Shown: positions 30,929-64,000 of the stretch, piece by piece
Layout of the letters: every line of letters starts with the position of its first letter
How positions within the stretch are numbered: the stretch's first letter is position 1
Origin: Tubulanus polymorphus
Lineage: Eukaryota; Animalia; Nemertea
Assembly (NCBI RefSeq): GCF_964204645.1
Contig: NC_134027.1
Span: 10,820,485 to 10,884,484 of the forward strand
Length of the DNA stretch: 64,000 nucleotides
Reading direction: 5' to 3'
Made by a program: the position numbers and the translations under genes
The notes under the pieces: model-generated
What the model was told of the DNA's origin: nothing
The model's input: only the letters and a program-made list of their open reading frames with translations
Database searches by the model: none

Positions 30929-31227
30929 TGTGTCGATGTCTTGCTCTCAACTACCAATCTACTGAAAGAAGGGGGCGAACTTTCACCCTATACCCCACGA
31001 TAACAACCGTTGGAAACTATCGACTAATAGATTATTTAGTGCTCGTGTCTTTTTGCCTTGAAGGCATTTTCCCTCAAGCAATCATCTTGCAAATTGCATA
31101 TCTCCGACATTGTACACGGACGCCAAGCGAGAGAAAATTACCATACTTAACGCTACTCATGAAACAGTTACGTATAATATTCAGAGTAAAAATCGAAATC
31201 TTACTCATTGGTTCTGACTATCATTAT

Positions 31228-44096: not shown

Positions 44097-47000
44097 TCAT
44101 ATCACATCCTCACTGATTTCAAATTGTTCAAGTTCACTCGGATTTTTCACCCAATTCATTTGGCACATCTGTTGTACATCAGCCCACTTGTTCCTGTAGT
44201 CCGAGACCACTTGCTTTAAATCGTAATAAGTTTTCAATCCGCAATATCTGTAACGAAAAAGCAGCAAAAATTGAATATTATAATACATGTAGTCTCAATT
44301 CAGTTGGAAAATTCAAAATACAGTAAAACATCACTTTAAATCCGGATCACTTGGGAGCAATGCAAATAAATCTGGTTTATGAGATGTGTGGTCTAGATTT
44401 TACATACAATGATGTTCCGGGATGGATCCAGGCTGGAAAAAAGGGATTAACCTCATACAAAAAGAGCACTTCATAGTCATGGATTGCGTCTTGACGAGTG
44501 GTGAAAATTGGTAGGAGGGTTCTCTCATATAAAAAATGTTGGTTCATTTCTATGCAATTTTAGTGCATATTACTACTTTGAGCAGTTCTGTGGACTTTTG
44601 TCATACATCAATTGTTGGGCCGAATTTTCACCTGCCATTTTTAAAAGGGGAGTTACACTGAAAGGGGGTTTTGAACACCCCAAAACCCGCCCTCTGGGCC
44701 TGCCCCTTATGTTTAAGTGGTAATCCAGATCAAGCTGATGTGGATCTAGGTTTTGACTGTATCAATGGGTTCATTGCTGCATTCACCTGTCCAACTCATT
44801 TTGATCATCACCCAAAAAATGTTTCAGCAAAATTCTGAATGTCTTGAATATCTCGTATTTGCATATACTACATCTGAAATGGAAAATGACACCTCAAATA
44901 ATTCTTTTGTTAGTTGGGGTGGTCCAGCTTTGGCATATTGATACCAGCATTAGACCATCCTCCACTGTTCAACTGTCGTAGTCGACCGGGCACATGACAA
45001 TAAGATATACCTAGAAGATGGTTTGTTGATGTTTTTAGCAGTAACACCTAACTTTTTGCCATTGACAGCAACTTCCAACGGTTTTTCGTCAACGTCACAC
45101 CAAATAATAGCTAAAATCACAAAGAGAATGAGTGTTGATGGATTGAGAATACGATCGATAATCAACTAATCATTTGAGTTGAGTAAAACTTGCGCAAGAC
45201 CGGTGTAGAATTCAAATGAAAGTCACAAGTTACATCAGGGCCGTTTAATTAAACAAAGCTAACTTGGAAAATGTAAGAAGTTATTTTATCTCCATGTCTT
45301 CATTACAACATTGACAACAAAACAAGTTCATAATGAAATTATATTGAATTATAAATGATATTGAATGATATTATCAATGATATTTAAATCATATTATGTG
45401 GTACCGGTATATGACAAATTTAGAGTTTTAGCTTGAATGATTGTTTTCAAACTCAACAGTCAAATCAAACAGATTCACTGGAACGCTTAAATTGTTGCAA
45501 CATACAGACTGCAGAGGTTGTTGAAACGCAATAAAGAAGGTAACTTAGTTAAGTCATTCGTGCGTCAATTGAGCTTCTTACAACTGATAATTTGGTTTCA
45601 AAAATTCAAGGAATTGTCGCTGACTTAAACAAGTTTTACCGTATATGGCTTACAACAATTAGAAGGCACCAAATTGTTTCCCGATGATTCGGTACAATTA
45701 CGTCCATCGTGGAATTCTAGTGATGACTGATAAACAGAAGGAAGGTTGAGATGAACACCATTTGTCAGGAATCTGCCACCTATTGCTCGAATAAGAGCTT
45801 CTTTATCGAATGGGCACCTGTAAAACCAGAAACAATCACTTTAGTGAGTATGATGGCAAAGAGACCACTAGTGTGAGAAAACCAAAACATGGCTTCCCGC
45901 CAACATTTTGACCCCAATCAACCGAAAATGCTGTAACTTAAATTTTACAGTCAAAGTCGCTTTAAAGTCATTACGTTCATTACTTACTCAAATGACAACT
46001 TGCACAATGGAAATTGAAAGGGAAATACTGAATCTTAAAAATGATTAACATCATCTAATGAAATCAGCAATTCATTGATGTACCTACATGCCTATCACCA
46101 TTGACGTAAAGAATATAGGCGAGGCGAGAAATTGAGTAAGAAGCGCCCCCTGGACACCGACTATATTCCACCTCGCTAATTTATCGCTACACGACATCGA
46201 AGTCGTGCGTTCTCCGCGGCCTGGCTTCGTCCTCAATAATCCAGTTTTATGATAATCTATCCCGTTACCGAAATCATCGTAATGAATACCGGGTACACAT
46301 TTTGCTCCGGTACGATGTATATCGTCACTCGACGGTCCTATGGCCTGCTCTGTACGGGTTTTTTTCGAGCTAGTCACAACCGCACTGTCAATATTGCTAT
46401 CTGAATGTTTCCGTTTCGATAACCCGTTATCGGAACTAGTCGTTCGAACGTGGCGAACACCGCTGTCTACACTCGCATCTTTCGTTTCAGCAGTTATGAT
46501 TCCAATTTCATGCATTCGCGATTTCAGAAATATGGACCCGTCGCCACCTGTAAAAACGAAATGTCGATATCATCTATACTTACTTTACTCTAACTTTATT
46601 TAACAAACTCAAGGTCACAATGTTGACAATCAGGATCGGTGTAAATATACAAGCGATATTTACATCTCAAATAAACATTTACAGACCAGACCTAGCAACG
46701 TATTGATAACCACATAAGGGACAAAAAAGTAAGTTTTCAGGGAGCAAAAAATGAAGAGTTAGACCAATCTTTAGAGGGACAGTTGAAAATTACTTCACGG
46801 ACAGCAATAGATTTTCTATAGCATCAAAAACTACTAACAGGGAGAGTGGGACTGTCTGACAATCAGGGACAGTAGGCAACTCTGATAGATGGACACCTTT
46901 CAGTGAAACTGAACCCAGGGTGTTCAATGGTATACATTAATTTTTCTGCGCACGCAACTCATTTTCTATTTATTAGTGATTTTCCTGAGAGATTTTCGGA

Positions 47001-48534
47001 AAGTTTTATTTGAAAAAAAATATCAAATTTTCTGATGTTCATTTTATTTCTCACAGACAATATCTTCGGTAATTTTCTGTGCCACTATGAAATAAAGCTC
47101 AACAGCTTTACAATGTTACACTTACAAGGAGTATGACTAGAGAAGAAATGGAAGCGGATTCCTGACTTCAGCTGATAAAGTTTTCTATCAGGCTCCAATG
47201 CGAATATGCTTTCTCCACCGGATATAGATTTTCTCAGTTCTGCGTACAAATATCTGAAATCAGAAAAAAAGTTGCGAATAGTTTATCGATATAGTGCAAC
47301 CATTTTGTCCGGGACCTAGTCCGCAATTGTGAGTTAAGATTCGACCCTAGAGTCAACTGATTGAAAATGAATCTAGACAAATTTGCTTAGTTACCTAATC
47401 AATGATGGTAAGCTTATATAATCGGATTGTCTTAAAATGTGAAAATAGCCAGGCAAAGACATCTTCAGGGCTTCAGGGTTCTACATCTTGCCAACAGTTT
47501 CAAACTAGATCCAAAATATTCTTCAATAAAATCAAGTCATATGAAACTTTTATACGCACCGAATAAATGCCTTTCTAGCAATCACTTCAGCGTGGCTATC
47601 ATTGATGACATCGCCTAAAAAAGATTAAAAGTTATTTCTTAATAGGAAAGGCAGTGGATATTTCACCGTATACGGCTGAGTATTTACCGTACATCATCGC
47701 TGATTTACGCCACACATGCGCACAGAGGTGCGCGACTTACAAAATTCAAGGAAAGTGTGGAGAACAGAGTTAGAGAAAATAGAGCAGAGAGAGCAAGACT
47801 CGAACTCGGGCCAGTAAATTACTAGCCCAGCGTCATACCTCTAGACCACCGAGCTCACTGAAAAGCAACCGAATGTTTGAACTATCTATAGTACCTCACC
47901 TTACCCTAATCCAATCCCTAGGGGTAAAACAGAACCCTCTAGACCCTCTTCTCACCCTCTCGACACAAACCCTATCGAAACCCTAAACCCAATATTATGA
48001 TTTTATTGTTACTTTTATTAGTTCATGTAAAAATGTACGGTAAAATAGCGGAAGTAAATACTTTGCCGTGTACGGTTAAATATCCACTTCGTATAGGAAA
48101 TAAGACCTACTTAAGCATGTTGAGTCAAAGCGAATCTGGTTTGAATTTTCAAGGCAATCATGAACTAACCTTTGCCACTTAATTTAGATGGACTTATACA
48201 TTTAGTGCCGGTACCGAGTGCTAAAACTCTATAATCATTCTTCCCATCTAAAAAAAGTCAAGAAGAGATTGACAGTCAATAAAATAAAAGCTGAAAAGTA
48301 CCGGTAGTCATAATAAAATTTTGTCTTTGCATTACAGGACCCATTCAGAGTCTTACCAATCATTGAATTTTCGAGCACAATTGCAGCCATCACAGTCCAT
48401 TCGACACCTTTCTGAGGTTTCCCTTTCTTTGGTAGTGAGGCATACTTCCTCAAACATATTCCAGCAATGAGATCGGCAAATGAGACACCATCAACCATTT
48501 CTGTTGCCGAAACAATGGTACGAAGTACCTTCAT
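44097..48534 (-). CDS. ADAT1: tRNA-specific adenosine deaminase 1 (A37 of tRNA-Ala), 9 exons
   Basis: Exons 48534-48357, 48247-48170, 47614-47560, 47253-47126, 46547-46088, 45817-45654, 45110-45011, 44873-44787 and 44247-44097 splice in frame. Motifs: [54 protein letters not shown]. No dsRBD, so ADAT1 rather than ADAR. The start could be the second ATG (48498). Confidence 0.93.
47653..48088. mobile_element. intronic TIR element carrying a tRNA-like segment
   Basis: Inverted termini AGTGGATATTTCACCGTATACGGC / GCCGTGTACGGTTAAATATCCACT. Minus strand 47856-47791 has Pol III A-box-like (TGGTCTAGAGG) and B-box-like (GTTCGAGTC) motifs. Confidence 0.6.
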
Positions 48535-49785
48535 TTACAGCGCTTAAAGTCGTGATCGATGATGGTATTTCAATTGCTTTTATTTACCATAATCGTAAAA
48601 AATGCAGAAAAAAAGTTGAAAAATGTAAGAATAATGAATAAATGCATGAATTGAATTGAATGTGGAGACTCCTGTTGATTTGTTAAGCAACGTCTACTAT
48701 TTTTTTTCATTTGGTCTGGGGTTCGAATCCCTCATAAAGTCCCGCGCGCATTTCACCATCTCTAAGTTAACCATACGGATCCCCGGGGTGAAACATTGGA
48801 AATTGAGTATATTTTCGTGGGAACGAAATAATTTTTTCGTTCGAACCAAATGTTTTTCGTACGAAGGAAATAGCTTTTCTGCTAAGCCCTGGCCATGATG
48901 GTCCCCACCAGATGGAGGTGGTTATAAAACAGTGCCGGTGACAAGTGGTGGAGGTCGATCACGGATATTTGGTTAACACCCCCAATGAAGTATCTCCATT
49001 GAAAATCACCTGACCATAGCCCTTTACGAAGGAGTAAAATTCTGTTCTCTGGAGGCTGGGGTAGTTTGAGGAACGGGGTTATTATTTGGTCATTTTGAAA
49101 AGGGGGTTCTGTCATGGGAAGGCGGGCTTGTATAAAGGCACTTGCCTGGGGCATATGACTGTCTCGAGCGTTGCTTGTCGACAAGCAATGCGACGCCTAT
49201 CGACTCCTACCGACGCAACTGAGAGCAACCGCGATCGCAGCCCAGCTTATGTCGACTGCGCTCCGATTCGCAGCAACTGAGGCCGACTAGCGGGATACGA
49301 GATCCTGCCAGTTGTTTACCTGCTTATGTCGGTTATGATTACTGGCAACCGCAACAGCTCAAATGATCACGTGATATGCATTTTGAAATAAATTTGAATT
49401 ATTTTGAACTATTGCGGAATATATATATTTCTATTAGAAAAGCTATTTCTTTAAGATCGTTATCTTTCTGATTCGGTTTTGAATGTGCAAGCGACATCTT
49501 ATAAAGATGGCCGCTCACACCATAATTCTACCAATTTCGTTTCTAAATCTTCGGTCCAGTCATCTGCGGTGCTGAAGGTTTGGTTTACGTTTTGAACTAC
49601 TTGAATTTGAAAGTTTATGACTAATTACATTAACTAGCGGTCATAATTTGTACTATGTATATGCGGTCTCTTATTGGCTGGAACCCCTGCGCTCAGTTCC
49701 GTCGCGTTGCAGATGAGCTTATGTCGGTTGCGATCGAAAGCAGCTGTCCGTCTACCGTAGGCCGGAGTACAACATGGGCAACTTA

Positions 49786-50194
49786 AGCCCGGCGCACACC
49801 TTTGCGATTGATCGTATGATCGCTTCATCGCATGGTTTTATCGCATCATCGTTAAGGTATGCGGTGGCATCCGGAGCCGATTTCATCGCATCATCGCTTC
49901 ATCGCAACAAATCAAACTTGTTTGATATTTTTGCATGCAATTTTTCCGTGTGATTAAAATCGTAAAGGTGTGCGGGCTACGCTATCGATGTTCCGAACGA
50001 AATTTTTTAGTAGCTAATCAGAATTAAGGATGAAGCAATCGTGATGTTCTAAATGGCGGCCCATTCACGTGATTGAATCCAACTCGAAGCCCTCATAAAA
50101 AATCGCAAATGTATGCGGGGATGATGCGATTTTCATCGTGTCATCGCATGCGATGATACGATGACACGATGATCGCAAAGGTGTGCGCCGGGCT
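49786..50194. mobile_element. PIF/Harbinger-type MITE with TTA TSD
   Basis: TTA | AGCCCGGCGCACACCTTTGCGAT ... ATCGCAAAGGTGTGCGCCGGGCT | TTA: perfect 23-bp TIR with internal CATCG repeats. Confidence 0.85.
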
Positions 50195-50946
50195 TTAGGA
50201 TTTTGATTAGAGCTAATAATAAGTACCGGTAATCCAAACCTTTGCCCACATAATTTAGTTAAAAAGCAACACTTTTCACCATGTTTCCATGTCACGATAT
50301 TTTTCCCCACCAAAAAAGAAGAAAACTGTCACTACATCACCTCCACTACAGTAGAACTGCCCGCATTGAAAAATCTGGTTTGTTTTCACGATCGGGGCTA
50401 ATCAAAAAGCCCATCCGATTTAAGCTTTACCACTTAGGCAGCTACACTAAGTAATGGTACCAAGTTTGTACAAGACCCGCAGTCGGTCAAGTTTCACTGA
50501 AGTCTAACAGATTATCAATGTTTCAAGTCCGAAGTAAAATTCTACTGATTACTGTCACAAACAACACACATAGTGTTTCATCGATGGTCGAGAGTCTGGC
50601 TTCCTGCGTATCAAGAATAAGTCGCATGAATTTCCGAGGCCAAATCATATATATTCCAGGCCATACGCAATTAACACATATATATTGCAAAAGTTAATCG
50701 AAATGACTAAGCACGTCTGCGAACAGTTCCGAATAGGAATCTTAATGTAAATTATACATAATGATGAACTTTATTACTGAAATCTATAATCGATTTAACC
50801 ATAGAACATGTGCCTTCGTATTGTTTTCCTTTCCGGTGGCCTTATTTACACATTTCACGTCTAAATATCAAACGAACGTGCGCCTTAAATGGGAGCGCAA
50901 GTCAATAGAATATAGCACGGCGTGAATTCGGGAAATTCACTCAAAA

Positions 50947-51253
50947 ATGAATACATTAACCAGTCTCGTCGTATTTTTTTACTCTTTATGGATAATAATT
51001 TCCGTAAACTGCCGAGGTGAAAATGGTATCAAATTCGCGAAAGCAAACGTTAGCGCCGAATTCGCGTTGACTTCTTTTAAAACGATAAACGTTCGAGGAC
51101 AAATGTTTTGCGCGTTGTATTGCGACAGAGAAGAGAATTGTACTGGAGAATTGTACTATACAAAAGGAGTATGTAGTTTGTTCGATGATCTGAACATTCA
51201 TACAGCGGGATCCATTGATAACAATATAAGTGTGTACATCAAACAAATATCAG
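50947..51253 (+). CDS. first coding exon of a secreted PAN/apple-like domain protein
   Basis: Hydrophobic signal peptide (MNTLTSLVVFFYSLWIIISVNC), then CALYCDREENCTGELY...GVCSLF (PAN-type C-x3-C-x5-C...C). Donor CAG|GTAGGT at 51253. Downstream exons not visible. Confidence 0.7.
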
Positions 51254-51416
51254 GTAGGTCTACGTTTCGTACATTTTTCTTACCAATGTTAAGAAATAAC
51301 GGTCAGAAATTCTTTCCGATGAGTTTTCTTTCGGCGTGCCATTGTGATCTTATGATAGACCTATGCCCTATTTTGGGGTGCACCCCTCCCTGAATCAGAC
51401 CCTATATCCACCCTTG

Positions 51417-52176
51417 TGAAACGATCTTAAATGTTCGTTCGATCTTAGTGGTCGTCGCTTTCGCTACGATAACTCTGAGTGAAACGGTTTAGTATATATT
51501 TCTTACCTATCGGTATCTCTTGCTACCGATAACCTATTTGTAGACGATTTCCCTAGCTCCTAGAATCCGGGATATAAAAAGTATACTTAACTTAACTCAG
51601 TAGTTTGCCTTTATCTGGTATACTATGATATATGTTTATTCCATTATCCGATATATAATTTCTTCTATGGTGTGGCTACAATCCTATAGTCGACCCGTCT
51701 GATCCAGATCCAATCCCTCGGCTAATCTCCCGTACGATTCCGATCTGATCTCTCGGTTCTCCTCTCTCTACTACTCTACTAGTTCCCGTTCTCCTCTCTT
51801 ACTTGGTCTCGTTCTCCCCGAATCTACTCAACTAACCCTTTTTATCCCCAGAATATCACCCCAAGTCTCAATCCCCTTCCATTGGTTAATTACTAAATAA
51901 ACTCCCCAACATTCTATACAATTATATAACTAAAATACTCTACAAGTAGCGAGATCGCCACTCAAGATCATGGTCTAACCAATGTTTATATAATAATAAG
52001 CCTAATGGATACTAACTAAGAATTGGAACAATGAAGCCTAAAGATGCCAGTTTGAAGGGTCTTGAATGTCGATCTACACTAAATGTCATAAACACAGCAG
52101 ATGTTCTGCCCTAAAGTTACATGAAAATATTTTATAAACAGCATTACTATTTAGCCAAAATAGCTACATCGTAACA
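51417..52176 (-). repeat. terminal (3') LTR, 760 bp
   Basis: Minus strand reads TGTTACGAT...ATCGTTTCA (TG..CA ends, imperfect inverted repeat). CCAAT (51885-51881), GATAAAAA TATA-like box (51846-51839) and AATAAA (51640-51635) occur in U3-R-U5 order. Confidence 0.9.
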
Positions 52177-53464
52177 CTCGCCTGGGCTTAATTAAGTGCC
52201 TGTCCTCAGGTACTTCACAAAGGAAACCATCATGTCTCGCAACAAAAATAAAGAAATCACACGCACAAAATATTCAATTCAATTCAAATCCTTGAGGGAT
52301 GGAAATCGAAAAAAAAACATTACGGACATGACAATTGCTTTGGACTATACACACGATTCCGCTAATCCTCGATACAATTAACTATATACAGTGCTTCTCT
52401 GTTGAAGGCAAAACCAAAAATCTAGAACCTAGTCTTAAATCTGACATCCAAAATCAGTCAATAATTTGAACGCACTTCAACAGATACCGCCTAAACCTAA
52501 AACCGGGGCATTATTCCGCCCTCCCTTTTTCTTATCAGAAGAGGGTAAACTCCTGCTTTTCTGTGCTGGAGTGTAGTCTCCAGAGGAAACCAATACATTT
52601 ATCCGTCAGCAATTCCAATAGAACTGGACGTTCCAACTCCCTACTCGACACGTGGATCATCCTGGTTCATCCCATCGTGGACTTCGATGTGGGAACTGGT
52701 ACATCTCATTCCTTGGTAATCAGCGTTGGTTGGTCATCAGCTCCTGGTATTTTGGTCAGCAGTCGCGCGCGCATGTCAAGTAGAGCCTACCATGCATCCC
52801 AAACTGGATATAGACTTTGTCCAGGAAGGGGACGGATTGGAATAAATGTATAGGTGACCATTCTAGCCCTAACCTAAGAGGATCAGCTTTTCTAAAATTA
52901 ATCAATCTTCTGTTGCGTCTATTGTAACAGTGTCCCTGAAAGCAAAAGAACAAAAGCCAATTCTCTGTGCATGGAAGTTCGACCGATACCATTACTGAAT
53001 GAATGATTTAATGAGTTTTAATCTGTACAATCGTTCCTCCAAAAATTTTCCTACAACGCCTGGGCTTTTATGGTTAACTATATCCTAAGCAATCGACTAT
53101 TTACAATGACCGCCCATCTTACAACACAAAAATCCACTCTTGGCTCTATCCTATACCTCATACCTCAATAAATTTCTACCTGAACTCTATTTTTAATATT
53201 TATCTCGACTATTTACATCTGACTCCCCCGCCTGGGCTTTTTTAAATTAGACATGCCCACATGTCTAGACATAGACTATTTTCCCTAGCCCCGGGTCCGA
53301 GTTCAACACGTGGTACCGGTACGTATGACTGGGGTGCCCATAATGTTCCTTTACGCACAGGGTCACTGCCATCACACCCTCCGCTTATCACAACTTGATT
53401 TCTGTTAAATACACTACCCACTTGCTTTTCACGACTATTTACAACGATATCCCTACTGATCTAA

Positions 53465-54739
53465 TTAACTTTTAATACGGCTCCTGTGGTACGTATGACT
53501 GGGGTGCCCATAATGCTTCTTGAGCACAGGGTCACTGCAATCACACATCCTACTAACCACAACTTTGTCACGCAACGGTGGAGGTTTCCCTCGAAGGTGA
53601 CCCTTATCTCTTTTAACTCCAACCCGGTTCCGATATCTGCATTCTACTGGCCCGATATGTTTTACCCCAGGTTTAAACACACTTGTATATTGGTGCGAAT
53701 GCTCCACAGAACTAATACGAGGGACAAGGGCAACGTCATTACACTGCTCAACTCCAGTGAGACCTAATCCCTCCTGGGCACCAGCTGAACTTTCGACCAA
53801 AGCGGTATCCGGATCATATACTCCCAGATCACGAATATCATTCAACACAATTTTATTCCTAGCAGATAAATCTAGGGGCTCATCTGTCAAGCCAATGCAA
53901 GTTATACAATTATCAATATTGTTACAATCACTTTCAACTTCATGAACACGCAGATCTAACGGATTATCACTAATGGAACTAATCGATCCGTCATTAAGAT
54001 CCTTTTTACAACCGATATCAGATTTACGAACTGACAAATCTAAAGGTACATCAAGCATTTCTTGACCAGAATGCATACATAGTACATGGACAACCTTTTT
54101 CGACCTACTGATTGATAAATCTAACGGCTCATTAATTTTAACAGTTTCCTTCGTAATCTCTGTATTTTTACTCATTTTCCCTGACCTATCTACATACAAA
54201 TGTCCAATCAAACTCGAATGATCTACCTTCCTAAATTTCTCTTGATCTATCACATCATTCCCGACTATTTCATACGATTTTCTATCAGCCTCTCCCGTCA
54301 ACGACTCAGTAATGCTGACGTCATCCGTCTGAGTGCTGATACTCTCAGTACTGTGTCCCCTAGACTTAAGTACAACCCCTGACGTATGGTCATCCAACCC
54401 AAGCTTCCATCCTACAGAGTCCTGAAGTACTGAAGTTCCTACCCCCACTGATTGGGGATCCTCAGCCTTCCCTGGATTCTCCAAATGTGCGTCCCTTTGG
54501 ACCGCACACGATTTATGGACAGCTTGCTGGCCTACCACCTGATCAGTTCTGGGCCCTTTCAGTACTGACGCCTGGTTCTGGACACCGGAGGAATCTTTCC
54601 CGGGCATCGGAATCTTTCCTCTCCTGAGCTCAACACAATTATTAAAACTAGCATGATTATTATGGTTATTAGATAAATACTTCCTTTTAATAGGCTGCTC
54701 AGGCCTTCGCCCGTCAGACTGAGCAGTTACTGAAAACCC
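53465..54739 (-). CDS. ORF2, -1 frame extension of Gag; mostly disordered-looking protein with 4 PLDL(S/R) motifs
   Basis: Open frame to 54781 overlaps the gag 3' end in the -1 frame and has no ATG at its 5' end. No protease, RT, RNase H or integrase motif recognised. Confidence 0.8.
   Translation of the reverse strand, partial: GFSVTAQSDGRRPEQPIKRKYLSNNHNNHASFNNCVELRRGKIPMPGKDSSGVQNQASVLKGPRTDQVVGQQAVHKSCAVQRDAHLENPGKAEDPQSVGVGTSVLQDSVGWKLGLDDHTSGVVLKSRGHSTESISTQTDDVSITESLTGEADRKSYEIVGNDVIDQEKFRKVDHSSLIGHLYVDRSGKMSKNTEITKETVKINEPLDLSISRSKKVVHVLCMHSGQEMLDVPLDLSVRKSDIGCKKDLNDGSISSISDNPLDLRVHEVESDCNNIDNCITCIGLTDEPLDLSARNKIVLNDIRDLGVYDPDTALVESSAGAQEGLGLTGVEQCNDVALVPRISSVEHSHQYTSVFKPGVKHIGPVECRYRNRVGVKRDKGHLRGKPPPLRDKVVVSRMCDCSDPVLKKHYGHPSHTYHRSRIKS
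54695..54739 (-). promoter_or_regulatory. -1 programmed ribosomal frameshift signal
   Basis: Gag frame reads TCG GGT TTT CAG TAA, giving a G_GGU_UUU heptamer (54739-54733), a 6-nt spacer CAGTAA, then CTGCTCAG-16 nt-CTGAGCAG (perfect 8-bp stem). Confidence 0.8.
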
Positions 54740-56325
54740 GACTCGGTCCCGGAAGGAACTGAAACTACATTTTGTGTACAATCACGGTAACCATGACCGA
54801 TCTGTTGACACCGATAGCAACGCAAAGTTTTTTGAGGACGGGACCTCATCTCAGGATGGCTATTTGTCCACTGAGACGCCACAGCAGCAATCGGAGGTCT
54901 TTGGCTTCTCGTGCTGTAAGATGGCACCTCAGGAACAGCCATATCCCTTACGCGAGCCTGAACTTTTGCCTGAATGAAAGTTCTAGGTCGTACGGTCATC
55001 AAGTGAGCCTTTAGCTCCGACCGCAGACCCTTAACAAAATATTCGATGTGTGATTCTTCTGAACCACCGACAATCTCGAAATATTTTTCCATCACGGAGA
55101 TATACGCCTCTAACGATTCACCAGGCATTTGCCTGCGTTTTTCCATTTTAGCTTTTTCCGTATATCTCCAACTTTCATCATTAAATTCGGCCATCAAAAC
55201 ATCTTTCGCAATTAAATAATTCGACTGATCCTCTAACGATAACTTTCTAAATATGGCTAATGCCCGACCTTCTAAATAAAACGATAAGGTTGTCGCGTAA
55301 TCACTGTCAGTGTACCTAGCGTAACGTTCGACCTGATATAGGAACTCTCCGAGACGTTCGCGCTGAGTTCCTGAAAATTTCATCGGCTTCGGGATATCTT
55401 TCATGCGATGAACGCGATCCTGGATCTCTCGCATATCCCGAACCGTAACTGGTCGATTTTCAAAACGATCGCAGTCAACCGTAGCCGGCACGCGTTCGTT
55501 ATACCGCTCAGATATAACCGATCTGGGCCGAACCGGTCCTGCTACATGTGAATGACCAACATTCTGAGGGGGTTGACCGACCAAAGACGCCTGTTGACTA
55601 GGTGGCGGCACCTGCGCACCCATGACCTGTCGTGATCCAGAGGACCACGGAACGTGCGCATTACCCATATGTGTTGGCTGATTTTGTGGCGAGTATCTTT
55701 GATCGTAGCCATAATCTGCGGTCGGCAGTACTGGGGCACTGTTTAAATGTGCCAACTGATTTACCGGCGGGTAATGATTCGGTTGATTATAACCCTGATC
55801 AACCGGCCCTAATTGAGCCATGGCCTTAGCCAATGTGGCTTGATCAAGAGGCCGATCATCCTCGTGATATCCACTCGGACCTTCACTCATCCTCTGGTGA
55901 ACCTCTCCCCCTTGTAACTGGGCAGAAGGTCCCCTCTGCGCTGAACGTACAGCTCGCGAGCGAGTGCGCGTACCAGACACCGAATTTCTAGCCCCGGAGG
56001 GAACAGTGTCTGATCCGCCACCCTGCCTGTCCCGCACGTACGTCACTGCCTGACACAGGACATCCAAATTATGCATTTGCCACATTTCCTGAGGAACATT
56101 AATCGAACCATCAGCCCTGACTGAAACACCCTGTGGCAAAGATCCCCTCGAATTCCTGCCAGATCCTACCCTTGAAGAACCTTGCCTTGCCCCCTGATGG
56201 ATCGGCATAAGCGGAATATTACGCGGCCGAAACTCGTACATATAATCCGAACAGCTAGATAAAGAACTAACTGAATCACTATCAGATTCATAATCGACCA
56301 AAGCATTAAATGATGTATAAGCCAT
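54727..56325 (-). CDS. gag: Gag (Ty3/Gypsy-like capsid plus CCHC zinc knuckle) with long N-terminal extension
   Basis: PMKFSG...FLYQVERY...YLEGRALAIF, RQMPGESLEAYI, FVKGLRSELK capsid motifs and CYRCQQIGHGYRDC knuckle. First ATG at 56325. Confidence 0.92.
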   Translation of the reverse strand: MAYTSFNALVDYESDSDSVSSLSSCSDYMYEFRPRNIPLMPIHQGARQGSSRVGSGRNSRGSLPQGVSVRADGSINVPQEMWQMHNLDVLCQAVTYVRDRQGGGSDTVPSGARNSVSGTRTRSRAVRSAQRGPSAQLQGGEVHQRMSEGPSGYHEDDRPLDQATLAKAMAQLGPVDQGYNQPNHYPPVNQLAHLNSAPVLPTADYGYDQRYSPQNQPTHMGNAHVPWSSGSRQVMGAQVPPPSQQASLVGQPPQNVGHSHVAGPVRPRSVISERYNERVPATVDCDRFENRPVTVRDMREIQDRVHRMKDIPKPMKFSGTQRERLGEFLYQVERYARYTDSDYATTLSFYLEGRALAIFRKLSLEDQSNYLIAKDVLMAEFNDESWRYTEKAKMEKRRQMPGESLEAYISVMEKYFEIVGGSEESHIEYFVKGLRSELKAHLMTVRPRTFIQAKVQARVRDMAVPEVPSYSTRSQRPPIAAVASQWTNSHPEMRSRPQKTLRCYRCQQIGHGYRDCTQNVVSVPSGTESGFQ

Positions 56326-56494: not shown

Positions 56495-56509
56495 CACGTT
56501 GGGGCGCCA
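56495..56509 (-). promoter_or_regulatory. primer binding site, tRNA-Lys(CUU)-like
   Basis: TGGCGCCCCAACGTG begins 1 nt after the LTR end. The known Lys1,2 PBS starts TGGCGCCCAACGTG; this copy has one extra C. Confidence 0.8.
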
Positions 56510-56510
56510 G

Positions 56511-57269
56511 TGAAACGATCTTCAGTGTCGTTCGATCTTAGTGGTCGTCGCTTTCGCTACGATAACTCTGAGTGAAACGGTTTAGTATATATTTCTTACC
56601 TATCGGTATCTCTTGCTACCGATAACCTATTTGTAGACGATTTCCCTAGCTCCTAGAATCCGGGATATAAAAAGTATACTTAACTTAACTCAGCAGTTTG
56701 CCTTTATCTGGTATACTATGATATATGTTTATTCCATTATCCGATATATAATTTCTTCTATGGTGTGGCTACAATCCTATAGTCGACCCGTCTGATCCAG
56801 ATCCAACCCCTCGGCTAATCTCCCGTACGATTCCGATCTGATCTCTCGGTTCTCCTCTCTCTACTACTCTACTAGTTCCCGTTCTCCTCTCTTACTTGGT
56901 CTCGTTCTCCCCGAATCTACTCAACTAACCCTTTTTATCCCCAGAATATCACCCCAAGTCTCAATCCCCTTCCATTGGTTAATTACTAAATAAACTCCCC
57001 AACATTCTATACAATTATATAACTAAAATACTCTACAAGTAGCGAGATCGCCACTCAAGATCATGGTCTAACCAATGTTTATATAATAATAAGCCTAATG
57101 GATACTAACTAAGAATTGGAACAATGAAGCCTAAAGATGCCAGTTTGAAGGGTCTTGAATGTCGATCTACACTAAATGTCATAAACACAGCAGATGTTCT
57201 GCCCTAAAGTTACATGAAAATATTTTATAAACAGCATTACTATTTAGCCAAAATAGCTACATCGTAACA
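56511..57269 (-). repeat. shared internal LTR 2
   Basis: Near-identical to 51417-52176, with a few substitutions and a 1-nt indel. Confidence 0.92.
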
Positions 57270-58557
57270 CTCGCCTGGGCTTAATTAAGTGCCTGTCCTC
57301 AGGTACTTCACAAAGGAAACCATCATGTCTCGCAACAAAAATAAAGAAATCACACGCACAAAATATTCAATTCAATTCAAATCCTTGAGGGATGGAAATC
57401 GAAAAAAAAACATTACGGACATGACAATTGCTTTGGACTATACACACGATTCCGCTAATCCTCGATACAATTAACTATATACAGTGCTTCTCTGTTGAAG
57501 GCAAAACCAAAAATCTAGAACCTAGTCTTAAATCTGACATCCAAAATCAGTCAATAATTTGAACGCACTTCAACAGATACCGCCTAAACCTAAAACCGGG
57601 GCATTACTCCGCCCTCCTTTTTTCTTATCAGAAGAGGGTAAACTCCTGCTTTTCTGTGCTGGAGTGTAGTCTCCAGAGGAAACCAATACATTTATCCGTC
57701 AGCAATTCCAATAGAACTGGACGTTCCAACTCCCTACTCGACACGTGGATCATCCTGGTTCATCCCATCGTGGACTTCGATGTGGGAACTGGTACATCTC
57801 ATTCCTTGGTAATCAGCGTTGGTTGGTCATCAGCTCCTGGTATTTTGGTCAGCAGTCGCGCGCGCATGTCAAGTAGAGCCTACCATGCATCCCAAACTGG
57901 ATATAGACTTTGTCCAGGAAGGGGACGGATTGGAATAAATGTATAGGTGACCATTCTAGCCCTAACCTAAGAGGATCAGCTTTTCTAAAATTAATCAATC
58001 TTCTGTTGCGTCTATTGTAACAGTGTCCCTGAAAGCAAAAGAACAAAAGCCAATTCTCTGTGCATGGAAGTTCGACCGATACCATTACTGAATGAATGAT
58101 TTAATGAGTTTTAATCTGTACAATCGTTCCTCCAAAAATTTTCCTACAACGCCTGGGCTTTTATGGTTAACTATATCCTAAGCAATCGACTATTTACAAT
58201 GACCGCCCATCTTACAACACAAAAATCCACTCTTGGCTCTATCCTATACCTCATACCTCAATAAATTTCTACCTGAACTCTATTTTTAATATTTATCTCG
58301 ACTATTTACATCTGACTCCCCCGCCTGGGCTTTTTTAAATTAGACATGCCCACATGTCTAGACATAGACTATTTTCCCTAGCCCCGGGTCCGAGTTCAAC
58401 ACGTGGTACCGGTACGTATGACTGGGGTGCCCATAATGTTCCTTTACGCACAGGGTCACTGCCATCACACCCTCCGCTTATCACAACTTGATTTCTGTTA
58501 AATACACTACCCACTTGCTTTTCACGACTATTTACAACGATATCCCTACTGATCTAA

Positions 58558-59832
58558 TTAACTTTTAATACGGCTCCTGTGGTACGTATGACTGGGGTGC
58601 CCATAATGCTTCTTGAGCACAGGGTCACTGCAATCACACATCCTACTAACCACAACTTTGTCACGCAACGGTGGAGGTTTCCCTCGAAGGTGACCCTTAT
58701 CTCTTTTAACTCCAACCCGGTTCCGATATCTGCATTCTACTGGCCCGATATGTTTTACCCCAGGTTTAAACACACTTGTATATTGGTGCGAATGCTCCAC
58801 AGAACTAATACGAGGGACAAGGGCAACGTCATTACACTGCTCAACTCCAGTGAGACCTAATCCCTCCTGGGCACCAGCTGAACTTTCGACCAAAGCGGTA
58901 TCCGGATCATATACTCCCAGATCACGAATATCATTCAACACAATTTTATTCCTAGCAGATAAATCTAGGGGCTCATCTGTCAAGCCAATGCAAGTTATAC
59001 AATTATCAATATTGTTACAATCACTTTCAACTTCATGAACACGCAGATCTAACGGATTATCACTAATGGAACTAATCGATCCGTCATTAAGATCCTTTTT
59101 ACAACCGATATCAGATTTACGAACTGACAAATCTAAAGGTACATCAAGCATTTCTTGACCAGAATGCATACATAGTACATGGACAACCTTTTTCGACCTA
59201 CTGATTGATAAATCTAACGGCTCATTAATTTTAACAGTTTCCTTCGTAATCTCTGTATTTTTACTCATTTTCCCTGACCTATCTACATACAAATGTCCAA
59301 TCAAACTCGAATGATCTACCTTCCTAAATTTCTCTTGATCTATCACATCATTCCCGACTATTTCATACGATTTTCTATCAGCCTCTCCCGTCAACGACTC
59401 AGTAATGCTGACGTCATCCGTCTGAGTGCTGATACTCTCAGTACTGTGTCCCCTAGACTTAAGTACAACCCCTGACGTATGGTCATCCAACCCAAGCTTC
59501 CATCCTACAGAGTCCTGAAGTACTGAAGTTCCTACCCCCACTGATTGGGGATCCTCAGCCTTCCCTGGATTCTCCAAATGTGCGTCCCTTTGGACCGCAC
59601 ACGATTTATGGACAGCTTGCTGGCCTACCACCTGATCAGTTCTGGGCCCTTTCAGTACTGACGCCTGGTTCTGGACACCGGAGGAATCTTTCCCGGGCAT
59701 CGGAATCTTTCCTCTCCTGAGCTCAACACAATTATTAAAACTAGCATGATTATTATGGTTATTAGATAAATACTTCCTTTTAATAGGCTGCTCAGGCCTT
59801 CGCCCGTCAGACTGAGCAGTTACTGAAAACCC
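58558..59832 (-). CDS. ORF2 (PLDLS-repeat protein), copy 2
   Basis: Same translation as copy 1; slippery site at 59832-59826. Confidence 0.8.
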   Translation of the reverse strand, partial: GFSVTAQSDGRRPEQPIKRKYLSNNHNNHASFNNCVELRRGKIPMPGKDSSGVQNQASVLKGPRTDQVVGQQAVHKSCAVQRDAHLENPGKAEDPQSVGVGTSVLQDSVGWKLGLDDHTSGVVLKSRGHSTESISTQTDDVSITESLTGEADRKSYEIVGNDVIDQEKFRKVDHSSLIGHLYVDRSGKMSKNTEITKETVKINEPLDLSISRSKKVVHVLCMHSGQEMLDVPLDLSVRKSDIGCKKDLNDGSISSISDNPLDLRVHEVESDCNNIDNCITCIGLTDEPLDLSARNKIVLNDIRDLGVYDPDTALVESSAGAQEGLGLTGVEQCNDVALVPRISSVEHSHQYTSVFKPGVKHIGPVECRYRNRVGVKRDKGHLRGKPPPLRDKVVVSRMCDCSDPVLKKHYGHPSHTYHRSRIKS

Positions 59833-61418
59833 GACTCGGTCCCGGAAGGAACTGAAACTACATTTTGTGTACAATCACGGTAACCATGACCGATCTGTTG
59901 ACACCGATAGCAACGCAAAGTTTTTTGAGGACGGGACCTCATCTCAGGATGGCTATTTGTCCACTGAGACGCCACAGCAGCAATCGGAGGTCTTTGGCTT
60001 CTCGTGCTGTAAGATGGCACCTCAGGAACAGCCATATCCCTTACGCGAGCCTGAACTTTTGCCTGAATGAAAGTTCTAGGTCGTACGGTCATCAAGTGAG
60101 CCTTTAGCTCCGACCGCAGACCCTTAACAAAATATTCGATGTGTGATTCTTCTGAACCACCGACAATCTCGAAATATTTTTCCATCACGGAGATATACGC
60201 CTCTAACGATTCACCAGGCATTTGCCTGCGTTTTTCCATTTTAGCTTTTTCCGTATATCTCCAACTTTCATCATTAAATTCGGCCATCAAAACATCTTTC
60301 GCAATTAAATAATTCGACTGATCCTCTAACGATAACTTTCTAAATATGGCTAATGCCCGACCTTCTAAATAAAACGATAAGGTTGTCGCGTAATCACTGT
60401 CAGTGTACCTAGCGTAACGTTCGACCTGATATAGGAACTCTCCGAGACGTTCGCGCTGAGTTCCTGAAAACTTCATCGGCTTCGGGATATCTTTCATGCG
60501 ATGAACGCGATCCTGGATCTCTCGCATATCCCGAACCGTAACTGGTCGATTTTCAAAACGATCGCAGTCAACCGTAGCCGGCACGCGTTCGTTATACCGC
60601 TCAGATATAACCGATCTGGGCCGAACCGGTCCTGCTACATGTGAATGACCAACATTCTGAGGGGGTTGACCGACCAAAGACGCCTGTTGACTAGGTGGCG
60701 GCACCTGCGCACCCATGACCTGTCGTGATCCAGAGGACCACGGAACGTGCGCATTACCCATATGTGTTGGCTGATTTTGTGGCGAGTATCTTTGATCGTA
60801 GCCATAATCTGCGGTCGGCAGTACTGGGGCACTGTTTAAATGTGCCAACTGATTTACCGGCGGGTAATGATTCGGTTGATTATAACCCTGATCAACCGGC
60901 CCTAATTGAGCCATGGCCTTAGCCAATGTGGCTTGATCAAGAGGCCGATCATCCTCGTGATATCCACTCGGACCTTCACTCATCCTCTGGTGAACCTCTC
61001 CCCCTTGTAACTGGGCAGAAGGTCCCCTCTGCGCTGAACGTACAGCTCGCGAGCGAGTGCGCGTACCAGACACCGAATTTCTAGCCCCGGAGGGAACAGT
61101 GTCTGATCCGCCACCCTGCCTGTCCCGCACGTACGTCACTGCCTGACACAGGACATCCAAATTATGCATTTGCCACATTTCCTGAGGAACATTAATCGAA
61201 CCATCAGCCCTGACTGAAACACCCTGTGGCAAAGATCCCCTCGAATTCCTGCCAGATCCTACCCTTGAAGAACCTTGCCTTGCCCCCTGATGGATCGGCA
61301 TAAGCGGAATATTACGCGGCCGAAACTCGTACATATAATCCGAACAGCTAGATAAAGAACTAACTGAATCACTATCAGATTCATAATCGACCAAAGCATT
61401 AAATGATGTATAAGCCAT
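59820..61418 (-). CDS. gag: Gag, copy 2
   Basis: Same translation as copy 1. Confidence 0.92.
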   Translation of the reverse strand: MAYTSFNALVDYESDSDSVSSLSSCSDYMYEFRPRNIPLMPIHQGARQGSSRVGSGRNSRGSLPQGVSVRADGSINVPQEMWQMHNLDVLCQAVTYVRDRQGGGSDTVPSGARNSVSGTRTRSRAVRSAQRGPSAQLQGGEVHQRMSEGPSGYHEDDRPLDQATLAKAMAQLGPVDQGYNQPNHYPPVNQLAHLNSAPVLPTADYGYDQRYSPQNQPTHMGNAHVPWSSGSRQVMGAQVPPPSQQASLVGQPPQNVGHSHVAGPVRPRSVISERYNERVPATVDCDRFENRPVTVRDMREIQDRVHRMKDIPKPMKFSGTQRERLGEFLYQVERYARYTDSDYATTLSFYLEGRALAIFRKLSLEDQSNYLIAKDVLMAEFNDESWRYTEKAKMEKRRQMPGESLEAYISVMEKYFEIVGGSEESHIEYFVKGLRSELKAHLMTVRPRTFIQAKVQARVRDMAVPEVPSYSTRSQRPPIAAVASQWTNSHPEMRSRPQKTLRCYRCQQIGHGYRDCTQNVVSVPSGTESGFQ

Positions 61419-61587
61419 TTCTATCAATAAATAAAATCTCTAACTCAAGTTAACAATAAAAATATACGACAAATTCCCTGTATATACCTAGCACAAGAAT
61501 ATATAGACTATAAATCTAAACCGAATTCTAACGAAAAGAGCACCGTAGGTTCGAACCGTTTAGAATTCAGCTAAAAAGAGAATTTAA

Positions 61588-61602
61588 CACGTTGGGGCGC
61601 CA
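61588..61602 (-). promoter_or_regulatory. primer binding site, copy 2
   Basis: TGGCGCCCCAACGTG adjacent to LTR 3. Confidence 0.8.
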
Positions 61603-61603
61603 G

Positions 61604-62362
61604 TGAAACGATCTTCAGTGTCGTTCGATCTTAGTGGTCGTCGCTTTCGCTACGATAACTCTGAGTGAAACGGTTTAGTATATATTTCTTACCTATCGGT
61701 ATCTCTTGCTACCGATAACCTATTTGTAGACGATTTCCCTAGCTCCTAGAATCCGGGATATAAAAAGTATACTTAACTTAACTCAGCAGTTTGCCTTTAT
61801 CTGGTATACTATGATATATGTTTATTCCATTATCCGATATATAATTTCTTCTATGGTGTGGCTACAATCCTATAGTCGACCCGTCTGATCCAGATCCAAC
61901 CCCTCGGCTAATCTCCCGTACGATTCCGATCTGATCTCTCGGTTCTCCTCTCTCTACTACTCTACTAGTTCCCGTTCTCCTCTCTTACTTGGTCTCGTTC
62001 TCCCCGAATCTACTCAACTAACCCTTTTTATCCCCAGAATATCACCCCAAGTCTCAATCCCCTTCCATTGGTTAATTACTAAATAAACTCCCCAACATTC
62101 TATACAATTATATAACTAAAATACTCTACAAGTAGCGAGATCGCCACTCAAGATCATGGTCTAACCAATGTTTATATAATAATAAGCCTAATGGATACTA
62201 ACTAAGAATTGGAACAATGAAGCCTAAAGATGCCAGTTTGAAGGGTCTTGAATGTCGATCTACACTAAATGTCATAAACACAGCAGATGTTCTGCCCTAA
62301 AGTTACATGAAAATATTTTATAAACAGCATTACTATTTAGCCAAAATAGCTACATCGTAACA
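61604..62362 (-). repeat. shared internal LTR 3
   Basis: Matches LTR 2. Confidence 0.92.
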
Positions 62363-63650
62363 CTCGCCTGGGCTTAATTAAGTGCCTGTCCTCAGGTACT
62401 TCACAAAGGAAACCATCATGTCTCGCAACAAAAATAAAGAAATCACACGCACAAAATATTCAATTCAATTCAAATCCTTGAGGGATGGAAATCGAAAAAA
62501 AAACATTACGGACATGACAATTGCTTTGGACTATACACACGATTCCGCTAATCCTCGATACAATTAACTATATACAGTGCTTCTCTGTTGAAGGCAAAAC
62601 CAAAAATCTAGAACCTAGTCTTAAATCTGACATCCAAAATCAGTCAATAATTTGAACGCACTTCAACAGATACCGCCTAAACCTAAAACCGGGGCATTAC
62701 TCCGCCCTCCTTTTTTCTTATCAGAAGAGGGTAAACTCCTGCTTTTCTGTGCTGGAGTGTAGTCTCCAGAGGAAACCAATACATTTATCCGTCAGCAATT
62801 CCAATAGAACTGGACGTTCCAACTCCCTACTCGACACGTGGATCATCCTGGTTCATCCCATCGTGGACTTCGATGTGGGAACTGGTACATCTCATTCCTT
62901 GGTAATCAGCGTTGGTTGGTCATCAGCTCCTGGTATTTTGGTCAGCAGTCGCGCGCGCATGTCAAGTAGAGCCTACCATGCATCCCAAACTGGATATAGA
63001 CTTTGTCCAGGAAGGGGACGGATTGGAATAAATGTATAGGTGACCATTCTAGCCCTAACCTAAGAGGATCAGCTTTTCTAAAATTAATCAATCTTCTGTT
63101 GCGTCTATTGTAACAGTGTCCCTGAAAGCAAAAGAACAAAAGCCAATTCTCTGTGCATGGAAGTTCGACCGATACCATTACTGAATGAATGATTTAATGA
63201 GTTTTAATCTGTACAATCGTTCCTCCAAAAATTTTCCTACAACGCCTGGGCTTTTATGGTTAACTATATCCTAAGCAATCGACTATTTACAATGACCGCC
63301 CATCTTACAACACAAAAATCCACTCTTGGCTCTATCCTATACCTCATACCTCAATAAATTTCTACCTGAACTCTATTTTTAATATTTATCTCGACTATTT
63401 ACATCTGACTCCCCCGCCTGGGCTTTTTTAAATTAGACATGCCCACATGTCTAGACATAGACTATTTTCCCTAGCCCCGGGTCCGAGTTCAACACGTGGT
63501 ACCGGTACGTATGACTGGGGTGCCCATAATGTTCCTTTACGCACAGGGTCACTGCCATCACACCCTCCGCTTATCACAACTTGATTTCTGTTAAATACAC
63601 TACCCACTTGCTTTTCACGACTATTTACAACGATATCCCTACTGATCTAA

Positions 63651-64000
63651 TTAACTTTTAATACGGCTCCTGTGGTACGTATGACTGGGGTGCCCATAAT
63701 GCTTCTTGAGCACAGGGTCACTGCAATCACACATCCTACTAACCACAACTTTGTCACGCAACGGTGGAGGTTTCCCTCGAAGGTGACCCTTATCTCTTTT
63801 AACTCCAACCCGGTTCCGATATCTGCATTCTACTGGCCCGATATGTTTTACCCCAGGTTTAAACACACTTGTATATTGGTGCGAATGCTCCACAGAACTA
63901 ATACGAGGGACAAGGGCAACGTCATTACACTGCTCAACTCCAGTGAGACCTAATCCCTCCTGGGCACCAGCTGAACTTTCGACCAAAGCGGTATCCGGAT
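63651..64000 (-). CDS. ORF2 copy 3, 3' end only (cut by window edge)
   Basis: Same C-terminal translation as copies 1 and 2. Confidence 0.8.
   Translation of the reverse strand, partial: PDTALVESSAGAQEGLGLTGVEQCNDVALVPRISSVEHSHQYTSVFKPGVKHIGPVECRYRNRVGVKRDKGHLRGKPPPLRDKVVVSRMCDCSDPVLKKHYGHPSHTYHRSRIKS

Follow-up and report, generated by a model that had tools for sequence, protein, structure and literature searches.

A pol-less Ty3/gypsy-type element in Tubulanus polymorphus with a predicted frameshift-linked ORF carrying four CtBP-type motifs

Main finding

In the analysed stretch of 64,000 nucleotides (the window), we identified an LTR element of the Ty3/gypsy type in which the frame behind gag, ORF2, holds no pol domain and carries four PLDL(S/R) motifs of the class that docks to the corepressor CtBP. 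The gag end has the geometry of a -1 frameshift signal, and in comparison with a second subfamily the ORF2 frame, the hairpin behind the slip site and at least motifs 1 and 3 are kept against a drifting background. Our leading, though still tentative, explanation is an element that depends on a helper and yields, as a minor product, a Gag-ORF2 fusion whose four motifs would bind and cross-link or sequester CtBP. The earlier note had likewise proposed a non-autonomous element with a Gag-ORF2 fusion acting on CtBP; the absence of pol, the slip signal and the selection on frame and motifs speak for this, while the fusion and its binding to CtBP are what we infer.

Structure of the element

By its LTRs, primer-binding site and a gag with Ty3-type capsid, the element is a Ty3/gypsy-type LTR element (Table 1). 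All parts named in the earlier note were found, on the minus strand; its wording "intact LTRs, PBS and gag" holds for their presence, but "intact" is too strong, since the polypurine-tract position is weak with only 9 purines in 15 nt. The LTRs of 759-760 bp have TG...CA ends with 755 of 759 aligned bases identical, and a TGG-starting primer-binding site, putatively tRNA-Lys-like, lies 1 nt inside LTR2 and likewise LTR3. The element forms one unit of a tandem array with a unit length of 5,093 bp, in which adjacent units have LTRs in common (LTR-internal-LTR-internal-LTR-internal) and which extends past the window end at 64000. The internal regions of units 1 and 2 differ at 3 bases. The array most likely arose by LTR-LTR recombination rather than transposition. 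Neither the array nor the canonical slip heptamer with its hairpin had been described in the earlier note.

Table 1. Positions of the element's features in the window.
Feature	Position	Strand	Remarks
LTR1	51417..52176	-	760 bp; terminal (3') LTR of the array; TG...CA; inverted ends match 7/9
3' non-coding region	52177..53464	-	1.3 kb; weak polypurine-tract position adjoins LTR
ORF2 open frame	53465-54781	-	438 open codons; -1 frame relative to gag; 55-nt overlap with gag
ORF2 past slip site	53465..54739	-	424 codons; first ATG at codon 59
Motif 4, PLDLS	53864..53878	-	motif scan
Motif 3, PLDLR	53948..53962	-	within stretch identical in both subfamilies
Motif 2, PLDLS	54032..54046	-	motif scan
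Motif 1, PLDLS	54113..54127	-	within stretch identical in both subfamilies
Predicted frameshift-stimulating hairpin	54695..54726	-	perfect 8-bp stem; starts 6 nt after heptamer
Slippery heptamer G_GGU_UUU	54733..54739	-	gag frame; one codon upstream of gag stop
gag	54727..56325	-	ATG 56325, stop 54727; 532 aa
Primer-binding site TGGCGCCCCAACGTG	56495..56509	-	1 nt inside LTR2
LTR2	56511..57269	-	759 bp; common to units 1 and 2
Second internal region	57270..61603	-	ORF2 58558-59874, gag 59820-61418, PBS
LTR3	61604..62362	-	identical to LTR2
Third internal region, 3' part	62363..64000	-	interrupted by window end

Gag consists of a long, low-complexity N-terminal part, a Ty3/gypsy-type capsid (about 55284-55021) and a single, weak CCHC knuckle (about 54822-54772). 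It matches Retrotrans_gag (PF03732) at 26.7 bits (cut-off 24.1) and reaches 0.95 to Ty3 capsid and retrotransposon gag in the Atlas search; the single-sequence fold of the capsid part is all helical, though poor (pLDDT 37.9). The 3' non-coding region displays short dispersed repeats and a single copy of a repeat spaced at 170 nt. Rfam revealed no match between 51300 and 56700, and Pfam none in eight minus-strand frames other than ORF2 and three plus-strand frames, except for one weak GPCR hit.

ORF2 and the absence of pol

At the local composition, 420 open codons would occur by chance at about 3e-13, and the roughly 420 codons reported earlier for the -1 frame behind gag agree with our count past the slip site. 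ORF2 yielded no Pfam family, either as a whole or for each of its two ends, the middle being scanned only within the whole; among nine weak PDB matches none was a retroelement chain, the two ends likewise giving none, and phmmer against 1.84 billion proteins returned no match. A pattern scan found no [YF]xDD, D[TS]G[AS], HHCC or GP[YF]. The claim of no recognisable pol thus stands by Pfam, PDB, phmmer, Atlas and motif patterns, as far as these searches reached no trace of a decayed pol was seen, and the pol with PR-RT-RH-IN of an autonomous Ty3/gypsy element was not found. By eye, the C-terminus had resembled an integrase GPY/F tail and the start a protease, and both were dropped as neither gave a Pfam or PDB match alone; PDB matches to transferrin-binding protein A (E 0.006-0.011) were judged to be chance. 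The single-sequence fold of ORF2, made from no alignment, is poor (pLDDT 31.6) and compatible with, though no proof of, disorder, so that we regard ORF2 as putatively disordered.

Frameshift signal at the gag end

Two in-frame heptamers occur among the 533 codons of gag, one of them G_GGU_UUU, while the other has a 4-bp stem and opens just 28 codons. G_GGU_UUU is counted among the most shifty heptamers in PMC5009743. Of 5000 shuffles, 10 gave an 8-bp stem in such geometry, as did 43 of the 4254 element positions; by free energy the hairpin region is unremarkable (z -1.09, 0.64 and -0.41), and no pseudoknot was found in the slip-site region. The gag end is predicted to carry a -1 frameshift signal. 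Of the link from gag to ORF2 by -1 frameshifting, as proposed earlier, the heptamer, 6-nt spacer and 8-bp stem are present, and the fusion itself is a prediction.

The PLDL(S/R) motif array

As claimed earlier, ORF2 contains four PLDL(S/R) motifs, three PLDLS and one PLDLR, where 0.002 would be expected from its composition. Searching the window in six frames for P.DL[SRTK] gave 12 matches, eight of which are the ORF2 motifs in two array units, two a single off-frame match present in both units, and two elsewhere in the window. The motifs are spaced 27-28 residues apart with linkers of 22, 23 and 23 residues. P-L-D-L is identical in all four motif units with third-position identity at 17 of 30, a sign of synonymous divergence, and flanking residues are shared at only 12 of 144 (8%). 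The five Atlas matches listed for ORF2, which at scores of 0.78-0.84 serve only as leads, comprise two to E1A and one each to NRIP1, an LCoR-like protein and Znf238; all but Znf238 are known CtBP binders. By analogy with the known motif class, the ORF2 motifs likely bind host CtBP.

A second subfamily in reads

All three read samples contained a second subfamily, diverged by about 10% or more from the window's form over ORF2 and present at about flank depth in each. The comparison rests on 40 listed differences of 96, and among these the ORF2 indels comprised one of -3, one of +3 and a cluster summing to -9, the latter from one contig and possibly enclosing a stop; a third form showed a -1/+1 pair. 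Such net in-frame indels would occur by chance in about 1 of 80 cases, if four events have a chance of 1 in 3 each. None of the 37 changed codons listed was a stop, and 10 of them were synonymous and 27 not, against a neutral expectation of 28% synonymous; since the synonymous share matches that expectation, ORF2 is not conserved as a protein outside the motifs. Motifs 1 and 3 carried none of about 32 listed differences in 311 nt (p 0.03, post hoc), which held likewise when 10 nt of motif 4 were included (p 0.009, post hoc), and no listed difference (40/96) fell in motif 2, the heptamer or the remaining 5 nt of motif 4. The hairpin stretch 54694-54723 is common to both subfamilies, divergence is highest from the hairpin to the ATG, where a stretch of 183 nt has 20 substitutions and 11 gap letters among the differences listed, and at the gag end two of four listed codons were non-synonymous. 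These data support selection on the ORF2 frame and motifs against a drifting background, and the loss of frame or motifs in relatives, named earlier as a refutation, was not seen among the listed differences, the second subfamily being net in frame with motifs 1 and 3 unchanged.

Interpretation and alternatives

We propose that the pol enzymes are likely supplied in trans by a helper element and that ribosomes would slip by -1 at G_GGU_UUU, yielding minor amounts of a Gag-ORF2 fusion about 953 residues long. Judging from the known motif, host CtBP is the likely partner of its four evenly spaced PLDL(S/R) motifs. Bound CtBP would most likely be cross-linked and sequestered, being inactivated as by the tandem motifs of RAI2, which would lift repression from the element or its helper. 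A more specific version, which we regard as possible and hold with less confidence, sees pol exchanged for a dedicated anti-silencing device, a four-motif cross-linker dosed by the former gag-pol frameshift and multiply displayed on the capsid lattice, which would polymerise and inactivate CtBP and so aid both element and helper. It counts against a fusion-based CtBP sponge that a capsid fusion is mostly cytoplasmic, whereas CtBP represses in the nucleus.

An unlikely alternative, though the likeliest of those considered, is that Gag-ORF2 binds CtBP as a tether, steering particles or the integration complex of the helper to CtBP-bound chromatin, or recruiting CtBP to the LTR of the element itself to limit expression. 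The evidence for selection on frame and motifs fits this equally well, the pol slot encodes the part travelling with the particle, and short integrase motifs are known to target insertion, as for Ty5 with Sir4. Drosophila piRNA factors also recruit CtBP to loci through such motifs, according to PMC12992792. However, ORF2 gave no Pfam match to a DNA-binding or chromatin domain, and a tether needs one motif, whereas four at RAI2-like spacing suit the cross-linking that we favour.

Rather improbable is also that ORF2 is a passenger, namely a captured host exon or rearranged remnant that is open because it is young, with motifs shaped in a host gene. The neutral change of the spacer codons agrees with this, and as protein libraries miss even gag, they would also overlook a host source; yet indels between the subfamilies are net in frame, neither the hairpin nor motifs 1 and 3 have changed next to DNA that differs by 10% or more, and no pol trace in ORF2 was found. 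We consider it quite doubtful that ORF2 is a separate protein of about 380 residues, made from the codon-59 ATG on a spliced or internally started RNA, with the slip signal as a relic of an ancestral gag-pol. All four motifs follow that ATG, divergence peaks in the DNA separating it from the hairpin, and a free protein would enter the nucleus more easily, but the length change upstream of the ATG is net in frame (-9) and the hairpin unchanged, which matters only if there is read-through from gag. It is similarly improbable that the second subfamily is a single domesticated, PNMA3-like host locus and the window's array its escaped or duplicated derivative, for although it occurs in all three samples at about flank depth and PNMA3 shares the layout of gag, -1 frameshift and non-pol tail (PMC5009743), the LTRs, PBS and 3' region are retained rather than lost, LTR depth is about 10x flank, the window's form is missing from one sample (run X5) rather than fixed at a single locus, and the gag end shows the two non-synonymous codons of four listed.

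Comparison with known systems

Parasite proteins with PxDLS motifs that bind CtBP are known from adenovirus (E1A), EBV (EBNA3A/3C) and Marek's disease virus (Meq). These are stand-alone nuclear proteins of DNA viruses, whereas ORF2 is a predicted frameshift extension of a capsid. In acutely transforming, helper-dependent retroviruses with gag-onc fusions, a regulatory protein replaces pol behind gag; those fusions are in-frame and to a recognisable host gene, while ORF2 would be joined to gag by a frameshift, and the searches turned up no host source for it. The VANC proteins of Arabidopsis VANDAL transposons are anti-silencing proteins that bind the DNA of their own element and, to our knowledge, have no CtBP motif. 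They resemble the role predicted for ORF2 in being transposon-encoded accessory proteins countering host silencing, but VANDAL elements are plant DNA transposons and the present one is an animal LTR element.

TR-GAG elements, non-autonomous LTR retrotransposons of plants with gag only, likewise combine LTRs and gag without pol and are moved in trans by an autonomous relative (PMC8704663); they have a single ORF, unlike the present element of an animal host with its second ORF of 424 codons behind a -1 slip signal. PNMA3 and PNMA5 (Ma3, Ma5) share a Ty3/gypsy gag, a -1 frameshift and a tail without pol domain or known relative, but PMC5009743 and PMC11011659 describe immobile mammalian host genes with poorly conserved tails of no known function, whereas our element keeps LTRs and PBS and a CtBP motif recurs in its tail. 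Human RAI2 (PMC11187106) is disordered and carries PxDLS-class motifs in tandem, spaced at about 26-28 residues (linker 21), which polymerise and inactivate CtBP. This host protein has two such motifs, both ALDLS, whereas ORF2 has four and no sequence relationship to it; CtBP polymerisation has been measured for RAI2 and is a prediction for ORF2.

According to the report on Drosophila cited above (PMC12992792), CtBP suppresses transposon promoters and was repeatedly rewired into the piRNA machinery through short motifs. Host silencing factors evolve in an arms-race-like manner, yet most of the well-documented transposon counter-measures come from plants (VANC). With a CtBP-motif array in place of its enzymes, the element offers a compact candidate for an animal anti-silencing protein that can be tested directly. 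A CtBP-motif ORF2 may be a reason for a helper to tolerate a non-autonomous element and, if the more specific version of our explanation is true, it would be a first transposon-encoded antagonist of an animal corepressor active in transposon control. The layout of gag, slip site and PxDLS array, which provides a search pattern for other genomes, was not described in the mostly open-access literature covered (Repbase reports apart), in line with the earlier suggestion that it is new for an LTR element.

Copies and relatives

Relatives in other species were not found across protein, metagenome and viral contig searches: gag homologue searches in three length ranges passed 0/723, 0/307 and 0/74 candidates, and scans of metagenome and viral contigs confirmed 0/85 and 0/5 stretches. 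These empty searches reflect thin lineage coverage, not uniqueness. Run X7 showed no depth on the element, and run X5 revealed no gag read excess at 85% likeness, thus no pointer to a close helper. In run X5, LTR read depth was about 10x that of the flank and internal depth equalled the flank, so that the family is low in copy number; none of its 67 reads reached at least 99% over ORF2, and the window's subfamily, lacking reads there, is therefore not fixed. Broken copies exist as well: a run X2 contig is short of a net 5 nt in gag, and a run X1 contig skips 52929-53481, removing the ORF2 stop.

Architecture of the element

Every part named in the earlier note was found, all on the minus strand. 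The element is one unit of a tandem array, an arrangement that the earlier note had missed. The array repeats every 5,093 bp and comprises three LTRs and no fewer than two and a half units before the window end truncates it. Successive units show five differing positions beyond 51434. LTR-LTR recombination is a known source of tandems with shared LTRs (PMC5932611, excerpt); the array length may include assembly over-expansion, leaving the unit anatomy unaffected. The LTRs (759-760 bp) have TG...CA ends. The PBS is set 1 nt inwards of the LTR; the polypurine tract is weak (9/15 nt purine). At its outer end (51417-51434) the terminal LTR differs from the inner LTRs by 2 substitutions plus 1 additional base over 18 nt; at 51431, reads of two public sequencing runs under the same species label (X5 and X1) have the inner form only, and those of a third (X2) both forms.

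Features of the element and its neighbourhood (window positions)
Feature	Position	Strand	Detail
gag	ATG 56325 to stop 54727	-	532 aa
ORF2	54781-53465	-	438 open codons; 55-nt overlap with gag end, -1 frame
Motif 1, PLDLS	starts 54127	-	ORF2
Motif 2, PLDLS	starts 54046	-	ORF2
Motif 3, PLDLR	starts 53962	-	ORF2
Motif 4, PLDLS	starts 53878	-	ORF2
Slippery heptamer G_GGU_UUU	one codon 5' of gag stop	-	gag frame
Control heptamer U_UUA_AAC	55747-55741	-	in-frame within gag
~80-nt repeat, two copies	53318-53396; 53488-53565		170 nt apart
Likely first PAN/apple-domain exon	50926-51252	+	host gene
High-copy host repeats	47650-48100; 49000-50200; 51362-51413		read depth 10 to 150 times flank
Adenosine deaminase exon	46084-46569	-
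Ankyrin + membrane frame	39329-41110	-	593 codons; TRP-like by eye
MYND-finger paralogues	34749-35495; 37687-38436	+	two, tandem, single-exon
Rhodopsin-type GPCR	29903-30946	-	single-exon

The C-terminal 224 residues of Gag matched Retrotrans_gag (PF03732) above cut-off and a CCHC knuckle weakly, and fell into Ty3 capsid clusters in Atlas (score 0.95). The Gag N-terminus (56325-56290, minus strand) reads ALVDYESDSDS, reminiscent of an LVxY-plus-acidic motif with which certain nuclear proteins begin or end; a literature search on this start found nothing relevant.

The ~420 open codons reported earlier in the -1 frame are real, the chance of such a run being ~3e-13 at local composition, and the claim that they encode no pol held. 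Pfam gave no family for ORF2, whole or with its first 113 or last 111 residues alone; the PDB search returned no retroelement among nine weak matches and none for the two ends, and pol catalytic patterns were absent. ORF2 had no match among 1.84 billion proteins, a blank of little weight because Gag likewise found no relative in large sequence libraries. In the 3' half, a scan of further short frames (11 of 86 listed, in addition to ORF2 and parts of gag) yielded one weak unrelated Pfam match. The five Atlas matches listed for ORF2 include no pol: they are Znf238, E1A (twice), NRIP1 and an LCoR-like protein, with scores of 0.78-0.84, under the tool's evidence line, and are probably driven by the motif itself.

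The CtBP-motif array and its proposed role

All four PLDL(S/R) motifs, predicted CtBP docking sites, were confirmed (0.002 expected from ORF2 composition), with linkers of 22, 23 and 23 residues. P-L-D-L is invariant across the four units despite third codon positions agreeing in only 17/30 comparisons and flanking residues in 12/144: conservation of the motif is at the protein level.

CtBP is known to bind PLDLS; in Drosophila it reportedly suppresses transposon promoters, and rapidly evolving motifs recruit it to piRNA loci (PMC12992792, excerpt). Human RAI2, with two ALDLS motifs and a 21-residue linker, stacks CtBP tetramers into filaments and relieves repression (PMC11187106, excerpt). 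On these grounds we tentatively favour, at a little under an even chance, a CtBP sponge: ribosomes would slip -1 at the gag end, and the tandem motifs of the resulting minor Gag-ORF2 fusion would cross-link and inactivate CtBP. This sponge reading is weakest on where in the cell the fusion would reside. A tether, for insertion or for self-repression, would draw on the same motifs and seems rather unlikely.

Conservation in a diverged subfamily

The element occurred in four of ten listed public runs under the species label, all of one study; a fifth run was included on the basis of its label. Mapping of the five runs (four samples) gave depth on the element in three samples. The window's form (A) was present in two of these samples and a second, diverged subfamily (B) in all three. 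A is therefore not fixed: across ORF2, none of 67 X5 reads reached at least 99%.

B diverges from A by ~10% in the motif region. The earlier note had asked whether diverged relatives keep the -1 frame open, and the indels listed for B suggest that it does: -3, +3 and an eight-row cluster of net -9 (174 nt over 183, in one contig). Counting also a third form's -1/+1 pair, all four listed events are net in frame (~1 in 80 at a one-in-three chance each); the +3 and the -3 each alter one motif spacing by a single residue. No stop occurs among the 41 substitutions listed, which affect 37 codons, come from two read comparisons taken together and may include a few from the third form; this is a weak result with ~1 expected.

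Retention of the motifs was borne out in part. A and B contigs end jointly where at least 30 identical bases are shared; such ends place motifs 3 and 1 in A/B-identical stretches (53942-53973 and 54111-54141), and 10 nt of motif 4 were unchanged in reads. For motif 2, the rest of motif 4 and the heptamer there is no difference among the rows listed, these being 40 of 96 in one read comparison, with 658 beyond those listed in the other. For ~32 differences in 311 nt to miss both motif 1 and motif 3, p is 0.03, and 0.009 with the 10 nt of motif 4 added (both post hoc). The synonymous share of changed codons (10/37) equals the neutral share (28%), so ORF2 outside the motifs is not conserved as protein. 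An open frame with fixed motifs in free spacers is the pattern of short motifs in a disordered tail; that ORF2 is a passenger or captured exon, set beside both the neutral spacers and the fixed motifs, is doubtful. Broken copies were also seen, with a net 5-nt loss in gag (X2) and a deletion across the ORF2 stop (X1). In reads and contigs of several runs, pieces of ORF2 from 54320-54549 (54347-54549; 54320-54460) continue into unrelated DNA; they are either stray fragments or evidence of a more distant third form.

The predicted frameshift signal

Gag contains two in-frame heptamers, of which G_GGU_UUU is counted among the most shift-prone (PMC5009743, excerpt). A -1 slip there leads into 424 ORF2 codons and a predicted fusion of ~953 residues. 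A perfect 8-bp stem begins 6 bases 3' of it, equalled in 10/5000 shuffles and at 43/4254 element positions; the control heptamer lacks a strong stem (4 bp), and a -1 slip there would open only 28 codons. On the opposing side, total folding energy around the slip site is unexceptional (three spans, z -1.09, 0.64 and -0.41), and no pseudoknot turned up. An A/B-shared stretch (54694-54723, from contig ends) covers most of the hairpin, beside the most diverged DNA. We consider the evidence of selection on the motif array and the frameshift signal fair; stand-alone production of ORF2, starting at the codon-59 ATG, is improbable.

Comparison with known systems

Viral PxDLS proteins and gag-onc retroviruses exist, and Arabidopsis VANC is reportedly a transposon-encoded anti-silencing protein. 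Plant TR-GAG elements are gag-only LTR elements (PMC8704663, excerpt), whereas the present one carries ORF2 behind a predicted -1 frameshift signal. Mammalian PNMA3 and PNMA5 combine gag, a -1 frameshift and a non-pol tail, the layout predicted here, but are immobile genes with poorly conserved tails (PMC5009743, PMC11011659); a domesticated PNMA3-like locus is credited with little probability. The combination of LTR, gag, frameshift and CtBP-motif tail was not found in a literature search covering mainly non-subscription journals. The element is real, a non-autonomous LTR variant new in its combination and seen in one species so far.

Copy number and surroundings

Depth in X5 is 3-14 internally against 5-10 in five unique flank bins, and 76-97 over the LTR. 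This amounts to a single internal copy or a handful, and to some ten LTR equivalents that are either solo or part of other elements. Gag is covered no more deeply than ORF2, and a helper with a gag of at least 85% likeness is thus not seen; that pol is missing and A patchily present suggests that the element borrows Pol.

The GPCR, the ankyrin/membrane frame and the adenosine deaminase exon form an invertebrate animal neighbourhood. The array's left end adjoins the high-copy repeat at 51362-51413. The PAN/apple exon, for a secreted protein (PAN_1 E 0.015, below cut-off), ends at a CAG|GTAGGT donor; the array begins ~165 nt further on and probably sits antisense in the first intron of this gene. 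One copy of the ~80-nt repeat, with palindromes and a PBS-like GGGGTGCCC core, codes for the ORF2 C-terminus, the other being non-coding; it had no Rfam match and is a possible packaging or dimerisation signal. In the 3' non-coding part (52177-53470), the dispersed short repeats CGCCTGGGC (three copies, one adjoining the LTR) and GACTATTT (four copies) occur. An X1 contig of depth 75 matched 52174-52457 without difference, a hint that this stretch is common to the subfamilies.
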